Shown here: positions 18,008 to 60,935 of the stretch, one piece after another
Position numbering within the stretch: position 1 is the first letter of the stretch
Layout: every line of letters begins with the position of its first letter
From: Octopus vulgaris
Taxonomy: Eukaryota
Reading direction: 5' to 3'
Length of the DNA: 64,000 bases
Assembly (NCBI GenBank): GCA_951406725.2
Contig: OX597823.1
Span: forward strand, 80,228,001 to 80,292,000
Notes under the pieces: model-generated
Told to the model about the DNA's origin: nothing
What the model saw: the letters and a program-made list of their open reading frames with translations, nothing else
The model's database searches: none
Program-made: the position numbers and the translations under genes

Positions 18008-18090
18008 CTACATAGGTTCACTTCCGGTGCAAACATTGCAAGCACAGGAAACAATGCGACTGAAGTTATGTCGGTGAGTTTTGCCATTTG
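18008..18090 (-). CDS. Mucin terminal exon: CTCK part 2 and stop
   Basis: TTCAATAG acceptor. [27 protein letters not shown] carries the CxC..C motif that completes the knot (11 Cys in total). Confidence 0.9.
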
Positions 18091-30000: not shown

Positions 30001-30854
30001 CAGTTGTGGTAGCTGATGTTGCAGCAGTTGTTGTTCTTGATGTTGCAGCCGCTGTTGTTGTTGCTGATGGTGCAGCAGTTGTGGTTCCTGATGGTACACC
30101 AGTAGTTGTCATAGCTGTTGTGGTTGCTGATGGTGCAGCTGTTGTGGTTCCTGTAGTTGCAGCTGTTGTGGTTGCTGATGGTGCAGCTGTTGTGGTTCCT
30201 GTAGTTGCAGCTGTTGTGGTTGCTGATGGTGCAGGTGTTGTTGTTCCTGATGGCACAGCTGTAGATGCAACTGTTGTGGTTGCTGATGGTGCAACAGTTG
30301 TTGAAGATCTTGCAGTAGAACCTCTAGTAACAGCTGTTGTCTTTGCTGAGGGTGCAGCCGTACTTGCGATACCAGTTGTTTCAGATGATGCACCTGTTGT
30401 AATTGGTGTTGCAGTTGTTATCGCTGTAGAAGCTGATGTTATTTTTGTTGGTGCACCAGTCGTGGTTGATGGTGTTGCTGTTGATGGTGCAGTACTTCTT
30501 TCAGTTGGAGCCAATGTTGCCGTTGTTTCACCAGAAGGTGCAGGTGTTGATGCACTTGAAGTGGTTGATGTTGCAGTTGTTCTTGATATCACAGTGGTCG
30601 TTGGAGCCATCGTTTCTGTTGTCTCACCAACAGATGTTGGTGCAATGGTTGTGGTTGTTGGGACAGTAGGTCTTGATGTTGAAACTGTCAATACACAAAT
30701 AGTATGAAGTTACATATATATATATATAAATTAAATTAGAGATAAAACCACTATTAGGCAACTCAGTATATCCCTATAAGTTTGGATATACTCCCTAATA
30801 TTATGATATATATATATACACTTATATAGGTAGATAGTAATATATTATATATAT

Positions 30855-32229: not shown

Positions 32230-35200
32230 TTATATGTATGTGTGTGTATATGTTTGTGTGTCTGTTTGTCCCCCCAACATCGCTTGACAACTGATGCTGG
32301 TGTGTTTACGTCCCCGTAACTTAGCAGTTCGGCAAAAGAGACCGATGGAATAAGTACTAGGCTTACAAAGAATAACTCTTGGGGTCGATTTGCTTGGCCA
32401 AAGGCGGTGCTCCAGCATGGCCACAGTCACATGACTGAAACAAGTAAAAGAGTAAAAGAGATGTAAGTAACAGTTGCTGAACATTGCCAGATGAAGCTTA
32501 ATGCTTTGTTTCCTTTTCCTACTGAACATTAAAGATATATTCTGTATGAGCTAAAACGAATATCAATGTGCATGTTTATCTGTATGTCATTGCCAGTGTT
32601 AAGAAAATTAAATGATTTCAAAATCATCATCATTTAACGTCTGTTGTCCATGCTGGCATGGGTTGGATGGTTTGACCAAGGCTGGCAAGCTGGAAGGCTG
32701 CACCAGACTTCGCATGGTTTGTACAACTGGAAATAATTAGACTCTTATCTACCTCTTTGCGACAATCTTAAACCTCTTAATTTATCGAAATATTTTGTAA
32801 TAACAGGAATGTTGTTTGTTCCTTCCTGAGCCATGCCTGGCTCATAAGGACTGGTTTCCCGGTTTTCTTGGCGTATAGGTTCCCCACCTGGATGGGATGC
32901 CGGTCCGTCACAGGTGAGCTGCTAATTGCAGGAGGAAAGAGTGAGAGAAAGTTGTGGCGAAAGAGTCAGCAGAAGTTCGCCATTACCTTCTGCTGGAGCC
33001 GCGCGGGGCTTAGGTGTTTCACTCATAAACACACACATCGCCTGTTCTGAGATTTGAACCCGCGATCCTTCGACCGCGAGTCCGCTGCTCTGACCACTAG
33101 GCCATATGCCTCCACATAACAGGAATGCCCTATGAATGTTCAAAACTTACCCTTTGTTGCAGGACTAGTAGGAGGAGGAACAGTTCCAGTAACTGAAAAA
33201 ACAAAAACATTCACCTTTTAGTAAAATTCTATTAACCTCTAATTCTGTTACTGACAGAATTATATATCAAATCAGATCAAGAGGGTGTCTTGTTATCAAC
33301 AGTAGGACTAGTAACATATAAGCTGGGTGAGTTATGATGGGGAGAGTTTACGAAAAAAACAAAAGACGAAGACAGGTGGTGTACAAAACAAACAGATGTA
33401 TTAGTATAACGCTCAGGAATAAAAAAAGTATTTTATGTTTCGAGCTTATGCTCTTCTACAGAAAGGGACACAGAAAAAACAAGGAGAGAAACAAGGAGAG
33501 GAAAAATGTGTGTACTGGCTAACGATACCCCAAACATGAATGGCTTGTACTTCTAGTTACAAATAGTGAAGACAAGAATAGGAATTAATATTTACAACCA
33601 GTAAAACACTAGGTTTAGCTATATATTTCATAAAAAACATTGTTTTTCAATGTCTTTGGTTATACTTGTCCAGTGATGCAACCACTGTGTCAGTATAGTT
33701 CCAATAACAATGGTGACAATGGCATGTCTGAGCAACAGAGTGCAGAAGAATATCATGGCTTATTTTTATTCAAACACACTGATAAATTGTTCTTGTTTGC
33801 CCAATGTTTACATCATCATCATCATCGTCGTCGTTTAACATCTGCTTTCCATGCTAGCATGGGTTGGACAATTTGACTGGGGGCTGTTGAACCAGATGGC
33901 TGCACCAGGCTCCAAACTTGATCTGGCAGAGTTTCTACAGCTGGATGCCATTCCTAATGCCAACCACTGCGAGAGTGCAGTGGGTGCTTTTACGTGCCAC
34001 TGGCACGGGGACCAGTCAGGCAGTACTGGCAACAACCTCGCTCGAATCTTTTTACACATGCCACTGGCACAGGTGCCATTAAGGTGATGCTGGTAACAAT
34101 CACACTCGAATGGTGCCTTTTATGTGCCACTGGCACGGAAGCCAGTTAGCCACTCTGGCAACGATCACGCTCGGATGATGCTCTTTGCACCCCACTAGCA
34201 CGGATACCAGTCATCGAATTTGATTTTGATTTGAATTTCACTTGTCTCAACAGGTCTTCGCAAGCAGAGTTTAGTGTCCAAAGAAGGAAAAGGTACGCAT
34301 AAGTGGGCTGGTTACGCTCCTAGCATAGCCCAAACATGTCATTAATTATGACTAACAAGTTGTGCATTAAAACATTTCATATAAACCTTTCTGCCACTTT
34401 ATATTTTTGATAATAAATTCATTAGTTGTATCTTTGTGACTGTGGAATATTGGTAATTTCACTATAATTGTAGGCATAACTTTTACCAATAGTAGCATCA
34501 GGGGTTAAAATTATGTTCACGATACATACATCAGGAAAAATCAAAATCATTTTGTAGCATATTTGAAAATAATTGTAATAAAATATCTAATATACAGGTG
34601 CAAGCAAGACTTAGTAAACCCATAATAAATTCATGTGTGTAAATATCACACTAATGATCACTTTAAAATAAATATTGAATATTATATGTTTTATATTTCA
34701 ATCTTATTCATCTAAAGCATTACATCATGCTTCAATCAATTATTAATTACTTCATATACAATATCTATAATTAACAGTCAATATAATCATTCTTACCTTC
34801 TGAAATATTAAAGCAAGCCTTCACCTGCAACCAGACAAAATAGTCTTCTGGTACACCTCCTTCTACAATTCCTTGAGATTCCAAAATAATCTTCACAGCT
34901 GTTGCTTTTGGATAATTACTCAATATAAGGGGTCCTGTAATGTTGGTACCTCCCAGTGTCTTCTGGAATTCATTAGAGCCAGGTGTTTGCACAAGAATTG
35001 TTACCTTACCGACACTACCCCACATGTCAACTTCAAGTAGTTCAACTCCTTCAGGTTTATCTGTCAATTTTATAGTAACACTTGGTTTTGGTTCAGAAGG
35101 TGATTTTGGTACTGGAACCTCCCAACCAGACGAGTCTGGTCTGATATTAGTTACAGGATGGTCTGGTGTATCAGGAGTTGATGATATGAAGGAATCAGGA

Positions 35201-36390
35201 ATGATATTTATATCATTCATACCTTCTCTGACCACACAAGGTACTGGAAAGAAAACAAACCAATATAAATTGTAACGTTATCAATTGTACAAATCCATAT
35301 ATAACATTAGGATAAACATTACTTAAATTTTATTTAGTTTAAATTAAGATATATTAAATAAATTTCAAATTAGGAATTCAGATAAATAAATTATATCAAT
35401 CTATATTAACTATATATCTCAATTACATAATTATAAATGTAATGATGTTTATTCCTAATGAAACAGCTGTAGAAATTAATTAGATTATGATCTATCAAAT
35501 ATTGGGATAGACATTACTTAAAATTAATTTATTTTAAACTGATATATATTAAATGAAATTCAAATTATGAATTTACATTAATAAATTATATTAATTTATA
35601 TTGACTAAATATCTTAATTACATAATTTAAAATCAATGATGCTTATTCCTCAAGAAACAGCTGTAGAAATTAATTACATTATGATGCATAAATAAAATTT
35701 ATGCCATTCTGCTTTCTATTCTAAATATATGTAAGCTCTTGGTTGATTTTTAACTGATTATGTATACGCAAGCCAGCCTCTACCACCTGAATTTACTGGA
35801 ATGTTTTAACGTGCTGAAGGTTAATTAATTAACATGGTCTTAATTAACATAGATGTATACTTTTTGGTTTTTTATATATCATCTTTCTTTATATAGATGT
35901 ATGCTAACATAAAGTATCAAATGACTAATGTATAATCAAATGACTAATATAGACAAGGTTTTACTTGATAAGGTGATAAAAATTAGTGCGGTACTTTTAT
36001 TTTGTTACCTACAGCAGAGACAAAATAGTAGCTTTCGTTGATAGTTGAACAAAGGATGCTGGGAAAAGAAACTCATTTAGTTTATTGTAGTTCATTTTGA
36101 ACATGTTCATTCCAAACAACTAACTGAGGCTAAAATTAAGAGATATTTAAATACAAATGTTAAAATGGTAATTCCCATTTATACCTGTTGTTGTTCTCTG
36201 TGTAGTGGATTTAGGGACAAGACTTGTTGATGTAGTTGTTTCTAAAAGATGAGTTGTAGCAGTGGGTGTTGTAACAGATGGAGTGGTCACTATAGTTGTT
36301 GTACTTGCTGACGTCACTATTTACATAAAGAAAGGGAAAACATTGTGTAATTAATATAAAAATTAAATTTATTATCACAAATATCAACTA

Positions 36391-36433
<43 letters not shown>

Positions 36434-37969
36434 ATATAGGAACAAAAAGATGACACCAGAAAAGACAGAGATGATGTAATGAACTTACAGCTGTTTCTGT
36501 TCTAAGATGTGGTGGCCTGTTAATCCCATAGCTTCATCAGAGCCTTGACTATGAAGTGCACCCTCTCTGCATGACTATATGTCTGCATAATTTTTCTTTT
36601 CTTATATTTCATTCTCATATAAACACATGTGCATATTTGCATACATTTTTTCTACATTTGGACAGATCTTTCCATAGGATTCAGTATTAGCTTTCTCACT
36701 CATAACACCTGTAGGTTCTGAAAATGTAACTTTCCTAAATAGGTGCACTTCGTATTCAAGGCTATGATGAAGTTATAGGACGTTACCCTGGGACTCCAGA
36801 AACAGTTCACCACATCCTATAGCAGAAACAGCTTCAGCTAATGAAGTTCATTATGGAACATTTGGTTTTTTTTCTAGTGTCATCACTTTTTTGCTTATTT
36901 CTTTATTGCCCACAAGGGGCTAAACATAGAGGGGACAAACAAGGACAGACTAAGGGATTAAGATGATTACATCGATCCCAGTGAGTAACTGGTACTTATT
37001 TTATCAACCCCAAAAGGATGAAAGGCAAAGTCGACCTCGGCAGAATTTGAACTCAGAACGTAATGGCAGACAAAATACCGCTAAGAATTTCACCCGGCGT
37101 GCTAATGTTTCCGCCAGCTCACCACCTATTCTCGCCACTCCATACTCAAATAACATTGTGTTCTGTACTATGTGTGCCTTGAGTTCTACTCCAGGTTATT
37201 AATCATACTACACCTAAGCAAAATACTAATATATATATATACATACACATGAATATATAAGTATGTATGTAAGTATACCTGCATGTATGTACTTATATAT
37301 ATATATGTATGTATATATATATATGTGTGTGGAGGCGCAATGGCCCAGTGGTTAGAGCAGCGGACTCGCAGTCATAGGATCGCGGTTTCGATTCCCAGAC
37401 CGGGCGATGTGTGTGTTTATTGAGCGAAAACACCTAAAAGCTCCACGAGGCTCTGGCAGGGGGTGGTGATCCCTGCTGTACACCTTCACCACTCTTTCTT
37501 CTGTTGGCCTGCTCGCTTAGCCAGCGGGGTGGCGTCATTCCAAGGCTAAAACAATGCGAACGCATTGTAACCAGCGATGTGTAGAAACATCTGATGGTCT
37601 GGTCGATCACGTGATCACGTGATATATATATGTATTTTTGTATATGTATATACATCATGGACTCTCCCATCGTTGGACAATACATGAGGGTTTGGCAATT
37701 TCCAAACGAACAACCACACAGATGATTTGTTTCTAATGATTAAATGTTTGTGTTGACATTAAGCTCACTCTCTCCATCAAATCGACATTATCTGTACACC
37801 AAGTGCACCCTGTGTCACATGTCAGACGACGAAATGATCACAGAGCAATGTGAAATGAAGTGCTTTGCTCAAGCACACAATGCAACGCCTGGTCTGGGAA
37901 TTGAACACACAATCTCGCAATCATGAGTGCAACACCCTAACCATTAAGCCATGCACCTTTATATGCACA

Positions 37970-38019
<50 letters not shown>

Positions 38020-41000
38020 GGCATATATGTATGTATGTATGTATACATATTTACATTTGTATGTATGCATGTATGTATGCATGCATGAATGTATGTATGT
38101 ATGTATGTATGTATGATGTATGTATGCATGCATGCATGTATGCATGCATGCATGCATGCATGTATGCATGCATGTATGCATGTATGTATGTATGTATGCA
38201 TGCATGCATGCATGTATGCATGTATGTATGTATGCATGTATGTATGCATGTATGCATGTATATATGCATGTATGCATGTATGTATGTATGCATGCATGTA
38301 TGCATGCATGCATGTATGTATGTATGTATGCATGTATGTATGTATGTATGTATGCATGAGTAGCAGAATGACAGAAACACAAACGTTAGTTCATAAATTG
38401 TATTTTATGATACAGCAACAGAGATACAAGTGTCATTTGTTGAATATAGTCTTTTGCTTGATAAACGTATTTTATGTTAGAGCAACAACATGCAAGAATC
38501 ATTTGAGAAATTTTATGGTAGAGTGATAGAAATAATAATGTTATTTATTATGTGTGTTCTGACAGAGCTAAACAAAAATAACAGAGTTAACCGTCAGTTA
38601 TGGAAAGAATATACTTGTGACAATATAATGCTCTTTTCTACTCTAGGAACAAGGCCTGAAACTTTTGGGGAGGGGGCCAGTCGATTAGATCAACCCCAGT
38701 ACACAACTGGTACTTAATTTATCGACCCTGAAAGGATGGAAGGCAAAGTCAACCGTGGCAGAATTTGAGCCCAGAACGTAAAGACAGACGAACTACCACT
38801 AAATATTTCACCCGGCATGCTAAAGCTTCTGCCAGCTCACCGCCTAGTGGCCTAGGTATGAGTATAGAAATTTTGAGCATTAATGAATGTGAACATTAAA
38901 AAGTAAAAGAAATATTCTATGCAGTAAAGAACTAAATGTATGATAATTAATGATAATTTATACACAACATGTTTTAGAAAAGATCTATCAGAATTGTTTT
39001 AACTTCTTACCAGGATAATGTCAATAAGTTGTCTTGGGATTCAAAGGATGAAAATTGAACAAAAGTGATAGTAATGAAAGACACACTGATGCAAAATATA
39101 AGTTAATGGTGTTTTTATTGATGTTACAGTTAAAACTAAATGAGGTATGAGAGAAGGAAAGAAACATTTTTTTGTCCCCCTATCATACCCTAACCTCTCA
39201 TCACTTGCACAAAGTCACCTCCCTCAATACGACTCCCTCTTTCAGTTGAGGGTCTTGCTTTGCAAGATACAGAGTGACCCCACTTGTGCTGGTTCCACAT
39301 TTAAAGCACCCAGTACACTTGGTAAAGTTGTTGGCATTAGGAAGGATGTCCAACTGTAGAATCCATGCCAAAGCAGGATAGAGCTTGGCACTGTCTTCTG
39401 GTTTGCCAGTTCCTATGAAACCATCCAACCCACACCAATATGGAAATGATTATAATGATGATGATGATGGAGTTTGTTATATATTCTTGTTCTATGATAA
39501 TAGTAACCAAAAGTGAATTTGTTTTCAACCTATTCATTGAATTAGCATGCAATTCACTGACTACTCTAAACATGTGTACTCTTCTTGTAATCCTCATTTA
39601 AAGGGAAAAATTTGACAAGAAAGTCAGTCGTCCACTGACACTCGTTGATGCTACATCGAAGAGGCCAGGGAACAGAAGAAAAAAGAAGAAAGAAGACATG
39701 CACACAACACCAGAGCTGAAGACACCTCCAAAAGTAGGGGGCCCCGCCACGTCAAAACGGTAGAGGAGTAAGGGCCGAAACCGGACATGGTTCCTCCTGA
39801 TGCTGTCTTGAGCTAACTGGATCCTATAAAGGAGCTGTTGTGGTAGAAGACCATAAAACACAGTTGAAATTCCCCAAACATGTGTACCCTTCTTGTAATC
39901 CTCAGGCAAAATCAACATGAAAGTGAATGACAAGGCTGAGTGTTTGAATTGAAGACACAATCCATCCAATGGCCTTCAATATATTGATAGTTTCTCTCCA
40001 CCCAATTTCATTCACAAGGCTTAGGCTGATCTGAAGTGACAGTGACAGACACTTGCTCACAATGCAAAACTGTAAGATCAAACTTAGGACCTGGTCATTG
40101 TGAGGCAAATGCTTGAAACATTAGACCATGCTTCTACTATATGCAACACTATTAAATCATTTTGGGGAAAAACGACATGTGCCGAGGGTGTTGCTATACT
40201 TTGTCGCTGAATGCAGGAGCCAATGTCTCATCAGACAGTGAACCAGCCAGCTCTGTGGGTGTTTCAGTCACCTCCACCCCCAAAACTCCTACAAAAGAAT
40301 ATTCTTCCTCATGTGATTACTAGTATCATAATTGTCAATATAATCATTCTTACCTTCTGAAATATTAAAGCAAGCCTTCACCTGCAACCAGACAACATAG
40401 TCTTCTGGTGTACTTCCTTCTACCTGACGTGGAGATTCCAAAATAACCTTTACAGCTGTCGCCTTTGGATAGGTGCTCAGTATGAGTGGTGTAGAAATGG
40501 CAGTACCTCCATTTATCCTATGGAATTCATCAGAACCAGGAATTTGTACAAGAACTGTTACTTTTTCTACAGAACCCATGAAAGCAACCTCAAGTAGTTC
40601 AACTCCTTCAGGTTTATCTGTCAGTTTTATGGTAACACTTGGTTTGGGTTCAGAAGGTGATTTTGGTACTGGAACCTTCCAACCAGACAATTCTGGTCTG
40701 ATATTAGTTACGGGATGGTCTGGTGTGTCAGGAGTTGATGATATGAAGGAATCAGGAATGATATTTATATCATTCATACCTTCTCTAACCACACAAGGTG
40801 CTGAAAAGAAAATACATATAGTTTATAAGGTTATTAAATCATATATATATATACATATACACATATATGTATATATACATATACACATACATGTATATAT
40901 ATATATATATAATACATATATGTATATGTATAATACATATATGTATATATACATACATACATATACATATATACATACATACATATACATACGTATACAT

Positions 41001-44000
41001 ACATATACATACATATATATATATATACCAACATGTGTATTTTATCAAATGACCTACGTGCTATTTATAGACAACAAATAGTACTTAAGATACAATATAC
41101 CATAAACCTGTCTTTTAAGACATTAGAAATGTGGCAAGCATTGCTGTGCTTATATTATTACCAATGGTAGGAACAAGAATGATAATTGTTTTACCAGTGT
41201 TTGAACTTGGAATAATGGGAGAAGAACCTCAATTAGTTTTAATGTAGTTTATCTTGGGCACATTGGTTCTGAACAACTAAATGAGAGTAGAAGAGATGTT
41301 AAAATTACAGATTGCCATTTACCTGATGTTGTTGTCTGTGTAGTGGATTCAGAGACAAGACTTGTTGATGTAGTTGTAACAACAGGTGTCTTAACAGATG
41401 GAGACGTCGCAATATGTGTTGTACTTGCTGATGTCACAATTTGCAGGTTAAAAAGGAAAATGATAACATATGATTACTATTAAAATTAGATATTAGTTAA
41501 TTATTAAGAATATCTGGTGCTTAAACCAATACCCACAAGAGTAAAATAATATTTTATATTGTTGATAAACATATATTTATAATTGTTAGATAATTGTTAA
41601 CATTGTGAAAATGGGGATGTAATAAATAATGATATTGGACAGAGGTATGAAAGTTACAATTCTTCAATCTAATGCCTTAACCCTTTTGTTACCGTATTTA
41701 TTTTGAGATACTCTGTGTTTCTTTCAATTAATTTTAAATATAACAAAGAATTTAATAAAATAACTTAGTTTTCATTAAGCTAGTGTTAGGAACATAAATT
41801 GTGACTAAGGTTTGGTGGAAGATTTTAATTCAAAACTTATGAAAATAAGACATTTGTACTACAGAGCCAGAGGTGGTTTCAGGCGGTTTTGTATCAAAAG
41901 GGTTAACTGGAAACAGGTGAGTGTTGGCAACAGGAAATATATCTAGCCATAGACAATTCTGCCTCACTGAAAAATGGCTCAACCTATGCAAGTATGGTCT
42001 AACAGACATTAAGATGAAGTTGATGGATGATGTATAGAGCACCAAACAGGCAAAATTTAAGGGACACCATAGTTTGCATCCCATTTCACAACCTGCACAG
42101 AGCTAAAGGCAAACATAATTTGCTTCCAGAATTTCAAATATTATCCCTGGACATCAGAACCTTTTAGTGATGTATCTAACAGTTGTTAAACACCAGCAGA
42201 TAGATCTTGATGTGTTTTCTTCTTTTTTGACAGAACATAAATGATATGTTCCGATGAGTTAAAGAGAATTTGAAAGTGCATGGTTTTTTTAAAAATCTCA
42301 TTGCTAGTGTAAAAGGGAGTAAAAATACTTCAAATCAAAATAATTGATAATTAATCCATAATTGATGTGTTTGCGACAATCTTTAATATCACAGACAATT
42401 AATCATATGATAGAAATATTTTAAAATATTAAAACCTTACCCCTTGTTGCAGGACTAGTAGAAGGAATAACCGTTCCTGTAACTAAGAAAACAAAAAATT
42501 ATTTTTAATAAACTTCTTTTCACTGATTTCAATTAACAACCATTATAATTATACATCTGATTACACTAACAGAATGTCTACATATCAACAGTAGGGCTGA
42601 CAATATATAAGTTGTGGTGAGTTGTGATATTGGCTAAGACATCTCCAAATGTGAATGGCCCATACATCTAATTACATCTGGTTACAATTTGGGCATTAAT
42701 CTCTATAACCAGCAAAACTCTGGGTTTCAGTATATCATACACTCTACAAACATTAACCCTTTAGAATTTAACCCTTTTATCATACACTCTACAAACATTA
42801 ACCCTTTAGAATTTAAACTAGTCATATCCAGCCAAAATGTTCTACCTGTCATATATGTTAAAAATGGTCAGACACAACCTCTCACATCTACCTTAAATGT
42901 TATTCTAAAAGTTAGCAATCCAATAAGGGGTATTTCAAAGGTATGAGATAATCCATAATAAATTCAAACAATGTGAATAAATAAATGTTACATTTGACAG
43001 AATAATCTGAATGGTAAAAGGTTGATGTTTTTCATTATATGAGTCTAATGAGACAATCTCTGGATCACTCTGTTTACATTTATAGTTGTGACAAAGTAAT
43101 GTCTGTGCAACACACTGCAGAAAAACTTATTTTATCCAATAACACTGGTATATTCTATTTTTTCCAAAATATTTATATATTTTGCAAATACTCTTTGCTC
43201 TTTTACTTGTTTCAGTCATTTGACTGCGGCCATGCTGGAGCACCGCCTTTAGTCGAGCAAATTGACCCCAGGACTTATTCTTTGTAAGGCTAGTACTTAT
43301 TCTATCGGTCTCTTTTGCGGAATTGCTAAGTTACAGGGATGTAAACACACCAGCATCGGTTGCCAAGCGATGTTGGGGGGACAAACACAGACACACGAAC
43401 ATACACACACACTTACATATATATATATACACACATATATACGACGGGCTTCTTTCAGTTTCCGTCTACCAAATCCACTCACAAGGCTTTGGTCGACCTG
43501 AGGCTGTAGTAGAAGACACTTGCCCAAGGTGCTACACAGTGGGACTGAACCCGGAACAGTGTAGTTGGTAAGCAAGCTACTTACCACACATCCACTCCAG
43601 TGCTTAATATATATATCATTTGTTATGACTATTTCATAAATATAAAATTTTAGTCCAATTCTTTCATTAAGAATACCTTTAAGAAGCATATAAAATAGTG
43701 GGTTAAGATTTCTTGATTATAAATTCTGTAGCTGTGTCAATATGACTTTGAAATATTGATACATTTCCAATAATTAGAGATAATTATTACCTATATTACT
43801 ATCAGGTTACACAGAGATATGTTCATTTCTAAGTTTTTACTAATATAAACATCAAAACAAATTAATGTTGTGTCGTATAGATAAGAGTTGCAAAGAAATA
43901 ATTATAATAAAATATCTTTAAACAGGTACAAGCAACATCTTAAATGTGAAGACTTACAAAACTTATGTAAATTCAAGAGAATAAAGCTTAAAATATAGAT

Positions 44001-47000
44001 CAAATCAAAGTAAATATTGAATACTACATTATTTATATTTTTGCAATCTTCATTATCAAATATATTTACCTCAGTCAATTATCATTTCAGTTCATAACTA
44101 ATTAAAATTATTTATTATTATATGTACAATAACTGTAACCAAAGTCAGATTATAATTAGTCAACTGTTAATATTTCATTTCATGTACAATAACTATAACC
44201 AACAAGTAATATGATTATGCTTACCTGCTGAAATATTAAAGCAAGCCTTCACCTGCAACCAGACAAAATAGTGTTCTGGTACACCTCCTTCTACAATTCC
44301 TTGAGATTCCAAAATAATCTTCACAGCTGTTGCCTTTGGATAATTATTCAATATAAGGGATCCTGTAATGTTGGTACCTCCCACTGTCTTCTGGAATTCC
44401 TCAGAGCCAGGTGTTTGCACAAGAATTGTTACTTTATCAACACTACCCCACATTTCAACTTCAAGTAGTTCAACTCCTTCAGGTTTATCTGTCAATTTTA
44501 TAGTAACACTTGGTTTGGGTTCAGAAGGTGATTTTGGTACTGGAACCTCCCAACCAGACAAGTCTGGTCTGATATTAGTTACGGGATGGTCTGGTGTGTC
44601 GGGAGTTGATGATATGAAGGAATCAGGAATGATATTTATATCATTCACACCTTCTCTGACCACACAAGGAGCTGAAAAACAGTAATATTTCATTATTTTA
44701 TATTATTGTAACATTACAATTTAAACTGTATCAACCTCAATAATTTCTTGTATATGCTCCACAAACTTTATGGACAACCACAATAAAAGCACTTACAGCA
44801 TTTACTGGTCAATATATAAGGAGCACTCCATCAGTTATGATGATGAGGGTCCCAGCTGATACGATCAACGGAACAGCCTGTTCATGAAATTAACGTGTAA
44901 GTGGCTGAGCAATCCACAGACATGCGTATCCCTAACGTAGTTCCAAGGGAGATCCAGCGTGACACAGAGTGTGACAAGGCTGGTCCTTTGAAATACAGGT
45001 ACTACTCATTTTTGTCAGCTGAGTGGACCGGAGCAACATGAAATAAAGTGTCTTGCTCAAGGACACAACGCGCCGCCGGGAATTGAACTCACGACCTTAC
45101 AATCGTGAGCCGAATGCCCCTAACCACTAAGCCACACGTCTTCACAATATATAATTCATAGACAAAGCATTGAGGCACAATTGTGCTTTAAACATGATAA
45201 TGTTGTAGAAACTGCTCTGCTATCTATATTTCATCCAGTTTTTGGAGACAAAAATTGAAGTAGATTTCACCAGGTTTTGAACTTAGAATGTCGTTTATTG
45301 CAGCTCATATTGAAAGCATTAGTATCTATACAACTAACTGAGTCAAAAGATATTTAAATAACATATTCATATTTACGTGCTGTTGTTGTCCTTGTTGTGG
45401 ATTCAGGAGAAATGCTTGTTGATGTAGTCGTTTCTGGATGAGGGGTTGTAACAACAGGCGTTTCAACAGATGGAACTGTCACAATACGTGTTGTACTTGC
45501 TGAAGTCACAATTTGCAAAGAAAAATGGGATAGCATGATAAATAATAGCAATTAAAGTGAAGTATTATTTGCTATTATAAATATCTAGTGATAAAGTCAA
45601 TGGACACAGGATTAAAATGATATTTGATATTGTTGATTAACAAATATCTATAATTGCTACATTATGATAAACATTGTGAAAGTAAATATAAATAGATAAC
45701 TTCTAATTAAAGCCAAAAGCCAGTAATTTTAAGAGGAGGGGGTTAGTCAGTTGCAGCATTGGCTCTGACATATACCTCTTACTCTCTTTTACTCTTTTTA
45801 ACTCTTTTTACTTGTTTCAGTCATTTGACTGCGGCCATGCTGGAGCACCACCTTTAGTCGAGCAAATCGACCCCAGGACTTATTCTTTGTAAGCCTAGTA
45901 CTTATTCTTTCGGTCTCTTTTCGCCGAACCGCTAAGTGACGGTAACATAGACACACCAGCATCGGTCGTCAAGCGATGGTGGGGGGACAAACACAGACAC
46001 ACAAACATACACACACACATGTATATATACATATAGATATATATACAACAGGCTTCTTTCAGTTTCCGTCTACCAAATCCACTCACAAGGCTTTGGTCAG
46101 CCCGGGGCTATAGTAGAAGACACTTGCCCAAGGTGCCATGCAGTGGGACTGAACCTGGAACCATGTGGTTGGGAAGCAAGCTTCTTACCACACAGCCACT
46201 CCTGTGCCTAAATACCTAATATTTTAGTTTGAAAACCTTGAAAGAGTGAAAGGCAGCATTGACTTTAGTGGCATTTCAACTCGGAACATAAAAACCAAAA
46301 CTGTATATCACAGTTTATTAGTAGATTGCTCTAAGAAACCTGCCTATCCACCAGCCTGGATGACATACAACAAATATTATAAGGAAGTATAAATGTTCAA
46401 AATTGTTAAACTTAAAAGGACTATTAATCATATTTAAGGAACCACTCCATCATATTCCATGGCTTAACAAGCACATGCAAATAACTTGCCTGAAAAGAGA
46501 GACCCTCTCTTGATTTATTAAACAGCTGTTGAGTAGCAGCAATTGTATTTTACTGGATATATAAAAGACATTTTGGTAGAAAATCTAAACTGAGTTAAGA
46601 ATGTGCAAGAATGTCTTTGATAGTGTAATAAAAAGGGAATGACTTCAAGTGGCAATAGTAATTAATCCACAATCTGCCCCTTGGTGACAGCCTTCATAAT
46701 CTTAATCTTTTTGACACCTACCTGCCCAAGTCTGCTTTTCTACAATACAAAGATCCAGTTTTACAATTATCTGAATTAAAAGCCACCTTTAAAATTTCAT
46801 GTTAATTTTCATTCTAAATAATATGGTGAGCTGGCACAATTGTTAAGAAGTTGAACAAAATGCTTAGCATTAATTCTTCTAGCATTTACATTTTGCATTT
46901 AAATCCCACCAAAGTTTTTGTCTTCCATCATTTTGGGGTCAATAAAATATATATTTGTTGAATATTGGCATCGATGTAATCAACTAGCCCTGTCCCCTAA

Positions 47001-47535
47001 AACTTCAGGCTTTTGGCCTATAGAAGAAAGATTTGTATTCCAAATACCAGCTTAATTGCAACACTTATTTTACTAAATATCTCATTATTTTCAAAATTAA
47101 TTGAAAAATGGCAGTTTATTTCTATAGAAATATGGTAACAAAAGGATTAAGTAATTAATCAAAATATTCTGTAATTACAGGAATGTTTTTAGGAATGTTT
47201 AAAATTTACCTCTTGTTGCAAGGCTTGTGGTGGGATGAACTGTTCCTGTAACTGGAAAAACAAAAGAATATTCACTTTCCAATTAAGATTCTATTAATTT
47301 CTACTTAAGTTTATGACAGTTATAATTATACTCCTGGTTGCATAAAATGGATATCTCAGAATTATTATTATTATTATTTTTGAGCAGAGGCAGTAGGATC
47401 TGCAAATAAAACAGGCAACCAGTAAGTAGAGGTGAGTCGTGAGTTTGGTCAAGACACTCTAAGCTCAAATAACTAATACATCTAATAATGAGGAGCCAAT
47501 GCAGGAGTTGATTTCCAGAACTAGTAATTAACTAT

Positions 47536-47596
<61 letters not shown>

Positions 47597-47893
47597 AATT
47601 AAGGACTGAACACGAAAAGTGGACAGTCAACATGCTAGATATAGACGTCAAATCGCCATTCACCACAAAAGATTATGTTCTCAGATCAAACTCAACACAA
47701 AGTTGTGTTGAGTTTGATCTGAGAACATAATCTTTTGTGGTGAATGGCGATTTGACGTCTATATCTAGCATGTTGACTGTCCACTTTTCGTGTTCAGTCC
47801 TTAATTGGTATATATAAATATTTTAATCTTCGGATTCTTTTTTAATATGCTAGACCACTGGTCTTAATTGATAAATATCAATTTCTACCCTTA

Positions 47894-47932
<39 letters not shown>

Positions 47933-50900
47933 AATTGCGACATCAAAGTGGCTGTTCCATGTTACTACTAATTTAACCCCAGGCAGTTCTTTGGTGTGGC
48001 AACTGACTTTACTTGTTAGTATAGTTATTACTCTGATCTCTTCTTGAGATTTTACAACTAGCTATTTTGCTTATATATATATATACATACAAAGGGGTGC
48101 TGAAAAGTTCCTGGCTTTAAGGGTATCCCAAAAGGCTTAGTTGGAGGTTCAACCTTCTGAGTTCTTTTACAGGCCTCAGAAAGCAGAAGGATCACTGCAA
48201 TCTGAGAGGGTAATATGTTGAATAAAATCATAATTAACTGATCCTCATGTATTTTCTTTTTTACCCAAAGCCGGGAACTTTTCAGCACCCCTTTCTATAT
48301 AAAATAATTAACTAAATATATGATATAACTGAACTTGATTTAAGTTTATCATACATTTTGTGAGAAATAATGTTTGGAATACTAACCATTCCACCGTAAT
48401 TATAGACATAACTGCAACCAATATTAACATCAGTTTGGAGAATATTATAATTCACTTGAAGCATTGTTTATTTTTTGTGAAATATAATGTGTCTTGAATA
48501 GCACAACAATGCAGAGTGGACTATAATAACTGGCAGAATCGTTAGCACGCCGGGCGAAATGCTTATAGGCATTTCGTCTGCCGTTACGTTCTGAGTTCAA
48601 ATTCCGCCGAGGTCGACTTTGCCTTTCATCCTTTCGGGGTCGATAAATTAAGTACTAGTTACGCACTGGGGTCGATGTAATCGACTTAATGTGTTTGTCT
48701 GTCCTCGTTTGTCCCCTCTATGTTTAGCCCCTTGTGGGCAATAAAGAAATATATAATAACTGTTATAATTTATCATTTATAGTCTGATATAATAGTATTT
48801 TGGAATATAAAAATTCCTGCTTCAGATATCGCTAGGAATCGATCCAGTCACTGCTGTGGCCATGCTGGGGCACTGCCTTGAAGGGTTTAGTTAAGCAAAT
48901 TGACACCAGTACTTATTGTCTTAAAGTCAACTACTTATTTCATTGGTCTCTTTTGCTGAACCACTATGTCATGGGGACATAAACAAACCAATTCCACTTG
49001 TCAAGTGATGAGGTGGTGGTGGGGGACAAACACAACAGGCTTCCTTTCAGTTTCTGTCTATCAAATCCACTTGCAAGATTTTGTCAACCCAGGTTTATAG
49101 TAGAAAACATTTGTCCAAGGTGCCAGGCAGAGAATTGAACCTGGATCTTATTTGACTAGGAAGCAAAATTCTTACCACCACAGTCATCACTCTGTGAGGT
49201 TCCACTAGTATACACACCAAAATATATCAATGTCATTTTGTACTCATAAGGACTGTAATAAAATAATGGTTAGGAAATATCTATTAGAGTAACATTTTAA
49301 ATTTGAATACCTAGTAAACCCATAATAAATTCATGTGTGTAAATATCAAAATAATGACCACTTTAAAGTAAATATTGAATGTTAAATGTTTTATATTTTA
49401 GTAGACTTATTTATCTAAAATATAACATCATAGTGCAATCAATTATTAATTATTTCATTTATAAAACCTATAATCAACAGACAATATAATAATTCTTACC
49501 TTCTGAAATATTAAAGCAAGCCTTCACCTGCACCCAGACAAAATAGTGTTCTGGTACACCTCCTTCTACAATTCCTTGAGATTCCAAAATAATCTTCACA
49601 GCTGTTGCTTTTGGATAATTATTCAATATAAGGGATCCTGTAATGTTGGTACCTCCCACTGTCTTCTGGAATTCCTCAGAGCCAGGTGTTTGCACAAGAA
49701 TTGTTACTTTATCAACACTACCCCACATGTCAACTTCAAGTAGTTCAACTCCTTCAGGTTTATCTGTCAATTTTATAGTGACACTTGGTTTTGGTTCAGA
49801 AGGTGATTTTGGTACTGGAACCTCCCAACCAGACAAGTCTGGTCTGATATTAGTTACAGGATGGTCTGGTGTGTCCGGAGTTGATGATATGAAGGAATCA
49901 GGAATGATATTTATATCATTCACACCTTCTCTGACCACACAAGGAGCTGAAAAACAGTAATATTTCATTATTTTATATTATTGTAACATTTCAATTTAAA
50001 CTGTATCAACCTCAATAATTTCTTGTATATGCTCCACAAAGTTTTAGCTACCAAATAAAAGTGGTAGCACAAATTCAAATGGCTGATTTTTGCTGGCATA
50101 AAATGGTTTCTAATGTGAAACCATAAAATGTGAGACCATAATGTGAAACCATAAAATGGTTTCACATTGACATAAGGTTAAACACTGTCATAGAGGAGTA
50201 TAACGAATGGAACTGATTTCAGTGCATGGTTGAACAACATTTTAACTCAGAACGTGAGAGCAGACATGGCTGTGTAGGAGGAAGTTTGCCTCTCAACTAC
50301 ATGATATCAGATTCCATCCCACAGTATGGCACCTTGGATAATGGTCATCTACTTTAGCACCAAAATGACCAACACCTTATGATTAGATTTGGTAGACAAG
50401 ACATTAAGAAGCCGATAATGTGTGTGTGAGTGTGTGTGTGTGTGGTGTTTGTATGGGTGTTTGTATGTGTAAGTGTGTGTGTGTGTGTGTGTGAGTGTGT
50501 TTGTGTGTTTGTGTTCCTGTGTGTGTGCGTATGTGTGTGTGTGTGTATGCATGTTTGTACGTGTAAGTATGTGTGTGTGTGTGTGCATGTGCTTGTGCAC
50601 AGGTATTGCAAAAACAAATAGACATTTTTGAAAGATTCCTCAAAGCAAAATGTCATTTATTGGAATTTAAATACTTAATCTTGTATGTAGTAGACATGCC
50701 TTGTTGATTTTGTTGCAAGGAACTACCAATGTCATCTTTGTAGCATTTGCAATCTGATTTCTAGCAATATTCCAACATGCCATTTTACTAGGGTGTGCTG
50801 AAAAGTCCTTGGCTTTGAGTAAAAGAAAATACAGGAGGAACAATTAATTATGATTTTATTCAGCATATTCCCCTCTCAGATTCATGCACTTGTTGCTGTG

Positions 50901-52463
50901 ATCCTGCAGTATCTAGGCCATGTTTTATGATTTCAAAATATGATCCTTTCATTGTCATTCATGACTTCTTCAATGACATGCTCTTTCTACACCAGGTCTG
51001 TTACTCTCCTAGTAGTGATTAAAAACTTATGTAAGACCTTCCTGATTGATAGACTGACCAAATGATTGATTAAATAACTGATTAGTTAAATGGTTGACTA
51101 GTTGACTAATAATAAAAGATGTGGAGGCATGTGGCTTAGTGGTCAGAGTATCAGCATCTTGATCGTAAGATTGTGGTTTCGATTCCTGGACCGGGCCATG
51201 CGTTGTGTTCTTGAGCAAAACACTTCATTTCACGTTTCTCTGGTTCACTCAGCTGGCAAAAATTAGTAACGCTCCGATGGACTGGCATCCCATCCAGCTG
51301 GGGAACACAAATGCCATTGAAACTTGGAAACCGGGCCCATAAACCTGGCTAGGCTTTAAAAAAAGGGCGCATATATTTTGTGGAGGTGCAATGGCCCAGT
51401 GGTTAGGGCAGCAGACTAGCAGTCGGAGGATCGCAGTTTCAATTCCTAGATTGGGCGTTGTGTGTTTATTGAGTGAAAACACCTAAAGCTCCATGAGGCT
51501 CCAGGAGGGGATGGTGGCAACCTCTGTTGTACTCTTTCACCTCAACTTTCTCTCACTCTTTCTTCCTGCTTCTTGAGTAATGCTGTGATGGACTGGCATC
51601 CCGTCCAGCTGGGGGGAACACATACGCCACAGAAACCGGGAAACCGGGCCCATGAGCCTGGCTAGGCTTGAAAGGGCGAAAAAAAAAATAATAATAATAA
51701 AAGAAGTGAAATAGAACCAATGATCCCTTCAGGATACAACATAATCAGTTTCAACACATTGGTCTACATCAAGAACTTTGCAAACCAAATACAAAAAAGA
51801 GAAATAGAAATACATTAAGATACCATTAATACTTAGGCTGATACTCTAAAATATCTACCAAAATAAAAAACAAAGAGAAGTGCATGTGTTACAATCTGCT
51901 TTTGCCTGTTTCCATTAGTTTTAAACAACAGCATGAAACCTACCATATGTTGTTGTCTGCATAGTTGGGCTCACCCCAGTTGTTCTACTGACAGTTGGTG
52001 TGGTACGAGGTGACATAGAATAAATCGCAGTTGAAGTAGTGGCGGTGGAGAAAACAGATGGCGATGTGAAGAATGTTGATATCGGAGTAGTTGGTGCCAT
52101 AGTTGTAACAGTGGTGGTTGCATTCGGGCAATATGGACAGCATTTTGCTGGATCTGTTATCCAAGTGGAATTGTCACAGGAAGGAGTCTCACAAGTTATT
52201 TCTTTCATCGACAATGAGCGTCCAGGAAGACATTCGATTGTTTTACATGGCCCGTCATTCCAGACTTCACCAATCTGAAAGGGAAAAACATTTGTGTCTG
52301 CAAATATATTTGGGAATGTTACATGAAATTAAAAGAAAGAAATAATTTTTGTGTATGTGCAGGAAGGGTGACATTGCCTCCCACTTAAAGGGTTTTGCCC
52401 ATGCATCTTTAGTTTAAAAAAAAAGAATAAAGTTGATACTTTTTTAATGCACTTTGTATATAT

Positions 52464-52498
<35 letters not shown>

Positions 52499-55400
52499 CG
52501 AAGTCATTGCCAGTACCACCTGACTGGCCCCCGTGCTGGTGGCACATAAAAAGCACCCACTACACTCCCGGAGGGGTTGGCGTTAGGAAGGGCATCCAAC
52601 TGTAGAAACTCTGCCAGATCAAGATTGGAGCCTGGTGCAGCCATCTGGTTCGCCGGCCCTCAGTCAAAATCGTCCAACCCATGCTGGCATGGAAAGTGGA
52701 CGTTAAACAATGATGATGATGATGATGCCAAGGAAGGCATGGAGCTGACAGAATCATTTGCACACCGGACAAAATGCTTAGCAGCATTTCGTCTGTCTAT
52801 ACATTCCACATTCAAATTCTACCAAGGTCGACTTTGCTTTTCATCCTTTTGGGGTCAATAAAATAGGTACCAGTTGAGGACTGGGGTCTATATAATTGAC
52901 TATCCTCCTCCCTGACATTGCTGGCCTTGTGCCAAAACTTGAAAACAATATTGTGTTAACCAAGGAAGGTGACTAGCTGACAAAATTGTTTGCACACCAG
53001 GCAAACTGCTTAGCAGCATTCTGTTCAGCTTTATGTTCTGAATTCAAATTCTACTTTGGTCAAATTACCCTTTTATCCTTTCCGGGTCAACAAAATAATA
53101 GCAGTTGAAAACTGAGGGTCAATGTAACCAACTTACCCCCTCCCTTGGAATAGCTGATCTTGTGCCAAAACTTGAAGCCAATATTGTTACCGAGGCCAAC
53201 TCTGCCTTTCATACATTTGAGGGTCAATGAAATAAGTACCAGTTGAGTACTGGGGTCGATCTAATCAACCAGCCCCTTTGCCCAAAATGTCAGGCCTTGC
53301 GCCTATAGTAGTAAGGGACATTATGTTGCATACCCCTAAAGCTGCTGATAAGACTGCATAAGTAGCCCTTAAAATGTTCATCATCTTTCTATATATAAAC
53401 GGAAAAATGTCTGTGTGTGTGTGTGTGTGTATCCTTTATACAAATCCACAATTTTTCAGTTAGAGGGCTCACACTTTCTAAGGTCATTCAAAACCGTCCA
53501 AAGGTGGTCGTGCACCTCTTTACATTTCCCCAGTCACCCGGCAAAGCCATTAAAAAGATCAATAGAAGTGACTTTTTGTGAATTTTCTATCCAAAATCCA
53601 ATCAAAATGCCCGAAACTTGATACGCCAGTTGAATGCCAGCTAGCTGTATGTGATTGGTCGGAGATTTGGACAATACTCGCGTGTATGTGCGCACGCACA
53701 CAGCTCTATATGCATGCACTAGCACTATGACCCGGCGTTGCTGGGTCATAGTGCTAGTTTTATATAAAAATGAAATAAAATGCATTTGTAACATTGCTCT
53801 GAAGCAATTTGGGATTATAATCTGAAGAGGAAACATAGTATGATGGTGTGGTTAAGAAGTTTGCTTCCCAAAAGGTGTTGGTGTGTTTGCATCCCTGTAA
53901 CTTAGCAGTCAGCAAAAAAAGGCCAGTAAAATAACTAACAGGATTTACAGAAAAATAAGTACTAGGGTCAATTCATTTGACTGAATTTGAAATTCTTCAA
54001 GGGGGTGCTCCAGCATGGCCGCTGTCTAATGGTTTAAACAAGAAAAAGAAAAAGATGTTTGACAAATAATCACGAACCTCATAGAAATTGCCTGATCTCT
54101 TGGGGTATTCACATTTATTAGCTGGTATACATCGGCAACATATATCATCATTCAGATCTTCATTCTCTAATATATAGTCCTGTGAAAATATTCAAAAAGG
54201 AAACACTTGTTAGAATAATGGTGAAGAGAAAGGGAGGAGGAAGAGGAGGAGGGCTTCTAAGACAGGCACGAGGCCAGAAATTTGAAATGCAAATAAATAC
54301 ATACACTCATACACACACACATGTACACTACTGGACACTCAAACTGATATAAGCATATATATATATATATACACATTCATATATACACGAGGAAGAGCTG
54401 AAAAGTTCCTGGTTTTGGGTAAAAGAAAATAAAGGAAGATCAATTAATTACGATTTTATTCAAAATGATCCCCTTTCAGATTTACACACTTATTGTAAAG
54501 GTCTATCAGTTTTCCTAAGCCCTGTAAAAGAACTCAGTGGGTTGGGCCTCCAACCAGGCCTTTTGTGATACCTTTAACCCTTTCGTTACTGTTTTTATTT
54601 TGAGATGCTCTGTGTTTCTTTCAATTACTTTAAATATAACAAAGAATTTAGTAATATAACATAGTTATCATTAAGCTGGTTTAGGAACATAAATTGTGAC
54701 TAAGGTTTGGTGGAAGATTTTAATTAAAACTTTAAGAAAACAAGACATTTGTACAACAGACCCAGAGCCGGTTTCAGCCGGGTTGGTAACGAAAGGGTTA
54801 AAGCCAGGAACTTTTCAGCACCCCTGCCCTTTGTAAACATATAGATATACATGAATATTGAGTCTACAGAAATGCAATTGTATATTCCTATTTTCCTACA
54901 CACACATATGATGTTGTCCGCCACCCAGAGCTCTTCTTGAAGAGCAACAGTGAATGTAGCTGTACAAGAGGCTAGTGATTTCTAACTTTTCCTCCTACAT
55001 TCCACCTTCTGTATGATAGAAAGAAAGAAACACATACATGCACACACACACACATAACAGGCATGATACTGTTCTGTGGGACATGCACTATTGTAGAGAT
55101 CAGCTGCTCAGCAGATGTAAATGTCCAATCAAAAGTCCAGGAAAAAGAGAACATTAATGGTAAATTAATGCAGAACTTACAACTCTTGTACCCTGAATAT
55201 GAATTCTCATTTGTATTTATCTTCATCGGTACATTAGGCTATGAACCCACAAATTTATGCAAAAGCCTAGAAATGCTAGGCTTTCCAAAGAAAGAGCAAA
55301 AGAAACTGACATGGTTCTCCAAATCCAATCCAATTGTGGCACAATGAAGATGTGTAAGACATTCCAAAAATTCTCCCTATGAGATTCTTCAGGTAAATAG

Positions 55401-58400: not shown

Positions 58401-60884
58401 GCCCGAGGCTATAATAGAAGACACTTGCCCAAGGTGTCACACAGTGGGACTTGAACCCGGAACCATGTGGTTGGTAAACAAGCTACTTACCACACAGCCA
58501 CTCCTGTGCCTATATTCTTGAACATAAAGAATGCAGAATATTTTGGCCATATATGGACAGTTTAAATACTGAAGAGTTAATCAAGGGCAAATGGCAAAGA
58601 TGCATTTAGATTGTAGAAAGATTAAATGTTGTATTATGCCATTCTATGTTTGTATATAGATCTTATGTTATGCTTTGGTCAAAAGCCTACATGTATGCCC
58701 CATGTGCAGCAGAACCTGTTGTTCAAGGACTGGTTTCCATATCAACTTAAGGGCTTGCCACTCTTCTTCCTGGTCATTGGACATGAAGAATTATCACCAC
58801 CATCATCATCAGCAGCAGCAGCCGTTCAAGAACTTGGACCTGGAGATCTCCATTTCCAGTGACTTCAAGAGCCACCTCCCAGTGACGTCGGGCGTCAACA
58901 AAGAGCCCTCGACTACAACGAGATGACCAAAGTCTGCAAGTTAGGAAGAGCTCACTATTCTAAGCTATAATCATTCTGTAGAATTTTAAAGGATAGTTTT
59001 TATCTAGCTTATGATGGAGTGTTCAACACTTCTTGAAGATTCTATTAGAAAAGTATTTTAGTTCATTTATTTCTTCTAAATAACCCACAAACAGAGGTAT
59101 CTCAGATCCTGAAACGTCAAATTTATTGATTCAGAATCAGAGAATGGTCAGATCCACCAATGAAATAAAGAAAGATAGAAAGAAGGACAGATCAATCAAC
59201 ATACGAAAATACAGTCAGGATATTTATTGGGTTGTCCGGAAAGTTCATGCCGATTTATAGTAGCTTACCTTTCGACTTATTTTACAACATGGTTGAGTCC
59301 ATAAAATAGGATTTGACTACACCTCCATTTAGAGCACAGTTTAAGCTATCTTTTCGTGGAATAAGGTTTATGTTCCTATAACCTGTGTTAATTCTGTAAC
59401 CCTTTAAAATGGAAGATAAGAAAGTTCATTTTTGGCACTTGATGCTTTGGGAACCAGACAAAAATTGCTGCAGCTCAGCTGGGATGTGTTACCCCACCCT
59501 CCATATTCACCAGATATTGCTCCTTCGGATTTCCACTTATTCAGGTCTCTGCAGAATAGTCTTAATGGTAAAAATTTCAATTCCTTGGATGACGTAGAAA
59601 GATACCTTGATGAATTCTTTGCCATGAAACCACCTCAATTCTAGGAAGAGGGTATTTTCAAGTTAAAGGAAAGATGGAGACTCATTGTGCAATAAAATTG
59701 TTCATATTTGGTTGATTAAAAATGTAATGGCAAGTATTTATTGACCTTTTTCTTTCTTTTAAAAATCGGCACAAACTTTCCAGACAACCCAATATATATG
59801 CTTTGATATTTGCTTTTTATTATGTTATTTTTTCATATTTTACTTACTTTGTAAAATTTTCCATTATGGTAACAAGGACAATCAGTTGGTTTGATACATT
59901 CACCTTTCTCTTGAACAAGGTGAGATGGACACATACAGCCTTCTTCACATTCAGTTTCATTAGGATTAGTAAAGTTGTTATAGGCTAATGTCTCACATGT
60001 TTGTAAAATAACACATGTAGTAAATTGCTTTGGTAATGTACAATTATGGGGGGTTGGAGTTGTTGAAAATGGTGTAACTGTCGTTAAAGACACACTAGAT
60101 GTTCTGAAAGAAGTCTCTGTCAAGAAAATAGAAAAGATAAGTCATGAGAAATCAGTAGAACAAAAATGATTTTTTTCTTAAGAGAATTACTTTTTTTATT
60201 ATTTTTGTATAAATGAAATGTAAAAATACAAAAAAAAATATATGGTTAATGATTGTTTCAAGTTTAGGTATAAAACCAGTAATTTTAGGGGAAATGAGTT
60301 GGTTTGGAGGCAGTTAATTAATTACACATGCTAATGAGTCTACTACCTCGTTACCTTAGAATATAGTACAGTCCTTATTTTATAATGATTATAATCATTA
60401 AATTTTTGCGATTAAAATTTATTATTTTGAAATTAATACTCTTTTACTCTTTTACTTGTTTCAGTCATGTGACTGTGGCCATGCTGGAGCAACGCCTTTA
60501 GTCGAGTAAATCTTTGATTTTAGACCTTGCTTCCATACATGAAATTTCTTCTCTAATTCTGGTAGTGATTCGACTATAAGAGCAATGTCATCAGTCTAGA
60601 GGATCTCCCAGGGGCAACCCAGCTTGAAATCCTCTGTTATTGCCTGGAGGACTATGATGAAGAAGACAAGGCCAAGGACTGATCCTTGGTAAACTCCTCC
60701 TTGTACCCTGAATTCATCGCTATATTCATTGCCAACTTCACTTTACTGATAGCATCCCTGTACGTGGTTTGTACAGCTCTAACCAATCATTCATTTATCC
60801 TTAGTTTCCACATTGACCACCAAATAAGGGAATGGGGGGGGGCTGTCAAAAGCTTTCTCTCCATGTCACCCAAAGCCAGGTATA

Positions 60885-60935
<51 letters not shown>

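Follow-up and report, generated by a model that had tools for sequence, protein, structure and literature searches.

What are the four 447-bp exons that recur among Pro/Thr/Ser-rich (PTS) coding sequence in a 64,000-nt stretch of the Octopus vulgaris genome (assembly GCA_951406725.2, contig OX597823.1, positions 80,228,001 to 80,292,000; hereafter the window), and what could their products do in a mucin? A preliminary description of this DNA had proposed strongly diverged discoidin/CBM32-like, putatively lectin modules placed ahead of a giant PTS domain. The follow-up analysis makes it highly probable that the four exons encode modules with a predicted discoidin (F5/8 type C) fold, that these modules form a divergent subfamily, and that they are carried by a mucin gene. 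The exons are:

49500..49946, minus strand: module 1 exon (predicted discoidin fold; sequence P0001), 447 bp, phase 1/1; based on frame, model and structure search
44225..44671, minus strand: module 2 exon, sharing 98% identity with module 1
40354..40800, minus strand: module 3 exon, of a divergent type (80–83% identity); joints in contigs
34797..35243, minus strand: module 4 exon, 93–94% identical to modules 1 and 2; joints in contigs

The description of four 447-bp exons, each encoding a two-Cys domain of about 149 residues between Thr/Ser linkers, is borne out by the reading frames, splice sites and Cys positions. All four exons are in phase 1/1, with a CAG acceptor and a GTAAG donor, and each product is a 148/149-aa module whose two Cys residues lie at module positions 2 and 143. 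The share of Pro, Thr and Ser is 26–28% in the modules versus 50–66% in the linker exons. A profile of alignment A1 (25 sequences, with P0002, P0022 and some members of a cluster described below left out) retrieved exactly four copies from the six-frame segments of the window (E <= 4e-60), the next best segment having an E-value of 1.3. The exons are not chance frames, because the encoded copies are 80–98% identical to each other, the ratio of nonsynonymous to synonymous substitution rates (dN/dS) is 0.18–0.60 in all six module pairs, and a module of Argonauta hians is 66% identical. Judged by these ratios, the modules are under purifying selection.

The fold assignment rests on two independent models. 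With A1 as input, AlphaFold predicted an all-beta sandwich for P0001 with high confidence (predicted local distance difference test score, pLDDT, 93.7; predicted template modelling score, pTM, 0.88), consisting of eight to nine strands and predicted to be closed by a Cys2–Cys143 disulfide. A Foldseek search with this model ranked the DS domain of DDR2 first (E 8e-6), together with neuropilin b1 and the factor V/VIII C domains, and returned 98 matches at E <= 0.001. In a VIA structure comparison against 48,161 representative chains, the top places went to a factor V-like chain and to NRP1 b1 (Z 14.5, root-mean-square deviation (rmsd) 2.7–3.2 Å, 128–133 aligned residues; 2.7 Å over 128 residues for NRP1 b1), followed at lower ranks by Dictyostelium discoidin I (Z 13.9), non-lectin relatives such as IFT25 (13.3), CBM32-6 (13.0) and galactose-bound CBM32 domains (10.8–12.1). 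A repeat comparison of P0001 gave the same ranking order. The distant family member P0013, which is 34% identical and was modelled from alignment A2 (pLDDT 86.2), matched NRP1 b1 with Z 16.1 (rmsd 2.4 Å, 129 aligned residues). Both models thus match F5/8 type C/discoidin domains first, as had been claimed. The Atlas features of P0001 fell into F5_F8/CBM32 clusters (0.92–0.93), and those of P0013 gave no usable match.

Neuropilin b1, the C1/C2 domains of factors V and VIII, the DS domains of DDR1/2, CASPR2 and the N-terminal domain of Dictyostelium discoidin match the fold of the whole module (Z 13.6–14.7), with Cys residues at both ends in register. Cys143 aligns, within the structure-aligned ranges, with residue 424 of NRP1 and residue 2326 of factor VIII, which we take to be the domain-closing Cys of each. 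The octopus module differs from these eukaryotic domains in its low sequence identity (8–18%), its shorter loops (about 148 versus 150–160 aa) and an R-P/PVP/GNV/Y signature. According to the models, then, the fold is that of a discoidin domain of the eukaryotic, Cys-closed type, lying by profile outside PF00754: none of the 25 members of A1 matches the Pfam F5_F8_type_C family even at E <= 10, as anticipated by the earlier suggestion that standard profile searches may miss these domains. Profile searches of the PDB reached CBM32-6 at E 0.14 and 0.26, the sole match of A1 being the one at E 0.14, which is not significant. Two other candidates were rejected: a CBM4-type xylanase module (single-sequence PDB search, E 0.13), as not significant, and a designed repeat protein (A2 profile against the PDB, E 0.0012), as assembled from sub-threshold pieces.

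The modules lie within a gene model of 22 exons running from 63998 to 18008, with a single frame of 3,356 aa and one stop codon, which is terminal. The order of its domains is a PTS region truncated at the window edge, Cys-rich EGF/TIL-like exons, a VWC domain with PTS sequence, the four modules with Thr-rich linkers, a giant PTS exon, two further PTS exons and a knot; several exon borders outside 33000–40825, the part covered by contigs, represent our choice of a frame-keeping site. The remaining features of the model, in the direction of transcription, are:

63232..64000, minus strand: upstream PTS exon, incomplete at the edge of the window; from the frame, the 5' part of the gene lying outside the window
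54078..61782, minus strand: Cys-rich TIL/EGF-like exons (61510–61782, 59848–60116, 57375–57480, 55864–56132, 54078–54179); based on TIL and on identity to Argonauta
51944..52274, minus strand: VWC and PTS exon just before module 1; Pfam VWC E 4e-6
47210..47251, minus strand: predicted Thr-rich linker exon of 42 nt following module 1
45377..45499, minus strand: predicted 123-nt Thr/Pro/Ser linker exon before module 2; an acceptor at 45433 (57 nt) is also possible
42441..42482, minus strand: predicted 42-nt linker exon after module 2; look-alike contig joint
41323..41427, minus strand: predicted 105-nt linker exon before module 3; look-alike contig joint
36185..36316, minus strand: linker exon of 132 nt separating modules 3 and 4; contigs from two runs contain both of its joints
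33151..33192, minus strand: linker exon of 42 nt following module 4; three of four runs join it to the end of a module, the copy being ambiguous
25681..30684, minus strand: giant PTS exon of 5,004 nt (1,668 aa), 61% Pro/Thr/Ser, no Cys
22334..25397, minus strand: two further predicted PTS exons (25314–25397, 22334–22636)
18008..20979, minus strand: C-terminal cystine knot in two exons (20773–20979, 18008–18090), then the stop codon; 11 Cys, Pfam

The linkers between successive modules therefore comprise 42 + 123, 42 + 105 and 132 nt, and module 4 is followed by a 42-nt exon and then by the 5,004-nt PTS exon. Two linker exons, 45377–45499 and 36185–36316, contain internal AG acceptors (45433 and 36241) that would yield in-frame 57-nt versions, and linker length may be variable by splicing. 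Among the Cys-rich exons, which are 57–78% identical to Argonauta hians protein P0005, the one at 59.8–60.1 kb matches Pfam TIL (E 4.7e-5); this match and that to VWC lie just below the Pfam cut-offs. The knot (96 aa) matches Pfam DAN above the cut-off (E 6.9e-6) and Cys_knot at E 0.0014. A large PTS domain and a C-terminal cystine knot, both features by which gel-forming mucins are recognized, are thus present. No VWD domain was detected in the window by tblastn or by a three-sequence VWD profile, the lowest E-value among 1,565 six-frame segments being 2.7; very short VWD exons could escape such a search. The mucin context proposed earlier accordingly stands for the PTS, TIL and VWC regions and the 11-Cys knot; the window contains no N-terminal VWD assemblies, and the gene runs beyond its edge.

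Splicing was assessed with contigs from four runs, presumed (by guess) to derive from RNA and placed on 33000–40825 only. The joints 35243–36185 and 36316–40354, both with CT..AC ends, occur in two of the four runs (X1 and X3, from two studies), on a 205-nt contig that matches the linker exon with no differences; the module ends are near-identical, so that the identity of the copy to which a joint leads is assigned by interpretation. In three of the four runs, the 42-nt exon ending at 33192 is joined to a module end that was placed on module 3 (33192–40354). Skipping of module 4 was rejected as an explanation, and the joint is read here as module 4 spliced to its next exon, since the final 26–29 bases are the same in modules 1, 3 and 4. 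The contigs include stretches that match modules 3 and 4 exactly as well as variants with 4–9 other letters, as expected of other copies; for modules 1 and 2, joints are represented only by look-alike matches. The GT-AG joints that the presumed-RNA contigs show on either side of these modules go against an absence of splicing, the condition under which the preliminary description would have been refuted.

The intron after module 1 holds a near-perfect inverted repeat at 47582–47821 (119-nt arms, 99% complementary, 2 nt apart), which is a fold-back element or else an artefact of the assembly. A small element resembling a miniature inverted-repeat transposable element lies at 48084–48301 (its inverted ends, 35 nt long and 91% complementary, are separated by 148 nt), and similar ends are found near 50800 and at 54380–54830. 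Short frames at 1877–2257, 2956–3291, 21519–21836 and 23337–23642 look by eye like decayed retroelement and mariner fragments, with no Pfam match at E 0.01.

Relatives of the module extend well beyond octopods. Word-indexed sequence searches reached only Argonauta and five short proteins and so under-sampled the range of the family, and an unindexed search gave 17 relatives at E <= 0.001. Two of them, P0012 and P0019, were dropped as spurious, being long repeat proteins in which only 42–54 residues matched, which left 15. Argonauta hians GAB1603105.1 contains five full copies and one partial copy; the 'mucin-2-like' protein XP_064614628.1 of the chiton Liolophura sinensis has seven modules; and the 'VWFD domain-containing' protein PAA50248.1 of the flatworm Macrostomum lignano (P0009) carries an EGF domain and three VWD-C8-TIL units ahead of four modules with Thr-rich linkers. 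All three share with the octopus protein the same tandem modules alternating with Thr-rich linkers, and in all three the modules are unannotated by Pfam. Two further Cys-bounded stretches of P0009 (residues ~1830–1970 and ~2640–2780) are F5/8-like by eye and were missed by both Pfam F5_F8 and the A1 profile. In protein P0016, a true PF00754 domain directly precedes the module. This arrangement fits a descent of the module family from the F5/8 arrays known in such proteins; the A1 profile (domain E <= 1) did not report the PF00754 domain of P0016. Following that domain and one module, residues ~517–1194 of P0016 comprise further Cys-bounded, beta-rich repeats barely detected by the profile (domain E 0.005–0.23), possibly a still more degenerate module series.

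Modules are near-identical within species and 27–37% identical between distant groups. In the module tree, which has many long branches and was used for within-species groupings alone, copies group by species, and this clustering suggests repeated duplication or homogenisation of copies within species. Homology between the flanking introns of module units was also found, and the exons are symmetric in phase 1. The tree neighbour of the octopod copies is a cluster of eleven near-identical module proteins (P0006, P0023–P0032), which in another cephalopod-like genome probably form a longer array.

Module 3 departs from the other octopus copies in a confined region. Of its 61–65 base differences from them, 52–53 lie within nt 211–410 (53 of 65 relative to module 1), and its divergence is almost confined to residues 70–136. 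It appears as a mosaic in which residues 1–69 are near the other copies (synonymous divergence, dS, 0.08–0.15) and residues 70–136 are old (dS 0.44–0.55). This pattern at 40354–40800, compared with residues 1209–1307 of P0005, suggests partial gene conversion. At the residues compared, module 3 agrees with Argonauta copy 6, the last copy, at 21 of 31, versus 14 (module 1) and 15 (module 4) of the same 31, which hints, in a small sample, at two old module types kept in both Octopus and Argonauta.

Conservation across the family was counted over 23 representatives with less than 70% identity. The most constant positions are R34 (22 of 23), an aromatic residue at 134 (21 of 23), C143 (20 of 23), an aromatic residue at 40 (19 of 23) and N76 (18 of 23), and P35, P43-V44-P45, P53, G75 and V77 are conserved as well. 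A signature of RP, W, PVP, GNV and Y is thereby retained from flatworm to cephalopod. By the strand order of the model, and not from coordinates, these residues would be placed at the end of the sandwich formed by loops, away from the disulfide; discoidin domains use this loop end for ligands.

CysD domains have about ten Cys residues and a WxxW motif, versus two Cys residues and an unrelated sequence in the octopus module, and insect hemolectin/hemocytin has a C-terminal knot. No CysD-like Cys-rich exon occurs among the four modules, and the octopus modules have no match to Pfam Mucin2_WxxW. The CysD domains of MUC2/MUC5AC resemble the modules in being folded repeats that interrupt PTS sequence and are proposed to cross-link mucus (PMC6861317; this and the other papers cited below are represented by the parts of them that were consulted). 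The closest published architecture is that of lophotrochozoan mucin-like VWD proteins, for which the F5_F8 domain was described as characteristic, with CysD inserted at the same region (Lang et al. 2016, PMC4948705; the proteins in their figure are from Lottia, Aplysia, Crassostrea, Capitella and Helobdella). The octopus gene likewise places F5/8 type C-fold modules in a PTS-bearing protein at the CysD region, whereas the F5/8 domains of that survey were called by Pfam; 'Octopus' is absent from its text and from the supplement searched, so that no cephalopod is covered there. Hemolectin/hemocytin is alike in being VWF-like with TIL/VWC and discoidin domains, but has a further two VWD-C8-TIL units after F5/8 and little PTS sequence, in contrast to the 1,668-aa PTS exon and knot of the octopus gene (PMC4948705, PMC4015701). 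Its 3 + 2 VWD layout is not seen in the octopus frame, which proceeds from modules to PTS to knot. Because F5_F8 domains at the CysD region of lophotrochozoan mucin-like proteins are already in print (PMC4948705), the architecture class is known, and the novelty claimed in the preliminary description was overstated; what is new is the divergent subfamily without Pfam annotation. No description of this subfamily was found in the open-access literature. The consulted parts of an octopus skin-mucus proteome (PMC11431876) contain neither 'discoidin' nor 'hemocytin' and offer no link to the gene, and those of a limpet paper (PMC7333891) contain neither 'discoidin' nor 'FA58C'. Nothing is overturned by the present findings, as discoidin domains had already been published from mucin-like and adhesive proteins of invertebrates.

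Whether the modules bind sugar was addressed through sequence patterns in 58 distinct modules out of 62 module stretches (E <= 1e-8, at least 95 aa). The structural calcium site of CBM32 domains follows DG(N/D/S)...W, W-H is a further pattern, and the fucose motif of F-type lectins is H-x26-R-x-D-x4-R/K; none of the three occurs in any of the 58. The conserved Pro35 aligns with the calcium-site Asp of 4a42, and R34 is the only conserved Arg or His of the family, position 74 being aromatic in just 5 of 23 representatives. The top structural neighbours are eukaryotic discoidin domains that bind proteins or lipids. The canonical galactose site of CBM32, given as H1392/Y1395/R1423/N1428/F1483 in CBM32-5 (PMC3313936), was represented by the pattern H-x2-aromatic-x24..32-R-x4-N, which covers its first four residues and was likewise absent from all 58 modules in a sequence-pattern test that involved no superposition. 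Bacterial CBM32 domains thus share the superfamily fold (Z 10.8–13.0), while the octopus module lacks their canonical galactose residues and calcium-site pattern. CBM32-6, the best of them by both sequence and Z and the sole CBM32 profile match, is reported not to bind sugar (PMC3313936). On these sequence patterns a lectin or CBM32-like reading, and with it the 'lectin-armed' part of the preliminary description, is not supported.

The reading preferred here, at a tentative probability of about 0.45, is that the modules act as non-lectin adhesive nodes that cross-link mucin chains by protein–protein contact. The protein would be secreted and O-glycosylated along its PTS stretches, would dimerise through the 11-Cys knot and would probably multimerise through VWD assemblies encoded upstream of the window. 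The modules would protrude from the glycan brush with their loop end (R34-P35, W40, P43-V44-P45, G75-N76, Y134) exposed, and this end could contact like modules or other mucus proteins by a route other than the classic galactose site. Several copies per chain would add avidity, as proposed for CysD; poly-CYS stiffens mucus (PMC6861317). Alternation of the modules with PTS linkers, in four copies in octopus, five and a partial one in Argonauta, seven in the chiton and four in Macrostomum, favours such a multivalent node. A number of points weigh against it. The octopus module is acidic (net charge -9), which disfavours self-association without cations; a shared fold alone is no proof of function; structure may be all that the conserved residues serve; the Asn76 of the family is lost in octopod copies, being Ser in all four octopus modules; and neither the signal peptide nor the VWD assemblies were seen, the 5' part of the gene lying outside the window. 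Absence of the canonical motif also leaves sugar binding possible, since CBM32 sites are diverse, with at least three unrelated sugar-binding modes (PMC3313936). Furthermore, bacterial aggregation by Drosophila hemolectin is reported, second-hand, to require its discoidin region (PMC4015701), and a carbohydrate-binding role is ascribed to the FA58C domains that sea-star adhesive proteins contain (PMC9382459).

The last three points speak equally for a non-canonical lectin or microbe binder, whose loop end would bind the mucin's own O-glycans or microbial surfaces through a site unlike the CBM32 galactose site. The fold common to CBM32 and Dictyostelium discoidins (Z 10.8–14.2), the conserved aromatics at 40 and 134, and the Trp74 that modules 1, 2 and 4 present at the predicted loop end (Met74 in module 3) would suit it, but the missing canonical motif, the solitary R34, the rarity of an aromatic at position 74, the non-significant and reportedly non-binding CBM32-6 match and the protein- or lipid-binding nature of the nearest structures leave it unlikely. 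If the modules were instead passive beads, disulfide-closed spacers that stiffen the chain or shield it from proteases and that spread by exon duplication and homogenisation with no specific ligand, then easily duplicated symmetric phase-1 exons, intron homology around the units, near-identity within species coupled with wide divergence between groups, and loop sequences highly variable across the family, all of them observed, would be expected. Preservation of the loop-end signature and the two module types apparently kept in octopus and Argonauta argue the other way, and this explanation is judged improbable. Factor V/VIII C domains, which bind via hydrophobic spikes and a basic ring, are among the best structural matches and would allow a lipid or membrane anchor tethering mucus to cell surfaces; the loops at the loop end are rich in Pro, Asp, Thr and Ser, the module is net acidic, and the spikes and ring have no counterpart in its sequence, which makes an anchor of this type very improbable.

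In Pfam-based annotation of invertebrate mucins, these modules appear as blank gaps. With the A1 profile, the domain maps of these proteins in molluscs and flatworms would become complete, and the family suggests that their F5/8-fold arrays occur more often than Pfam-based surveys indicate. As a small module encoded by a single exon and easy to express, it makes the non-covalent cohesion of invertebrate mucus gels directly testable. A broader and rather doubtful extension is that a Spiralia-wide discoidin subfamily with the RP-W-PVP-GNV-Y signature is the spiralian counterpart of CysD, a reversible cross-linker or a binder of new specificity that would set mucus stiffness or stickiness, with two functionally distinct types, one like module 1 and one like module 3, retained together in octopods. 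If this were true, mollusc and flatworm mucus would carry 4 to 8 or more such modules per chain.

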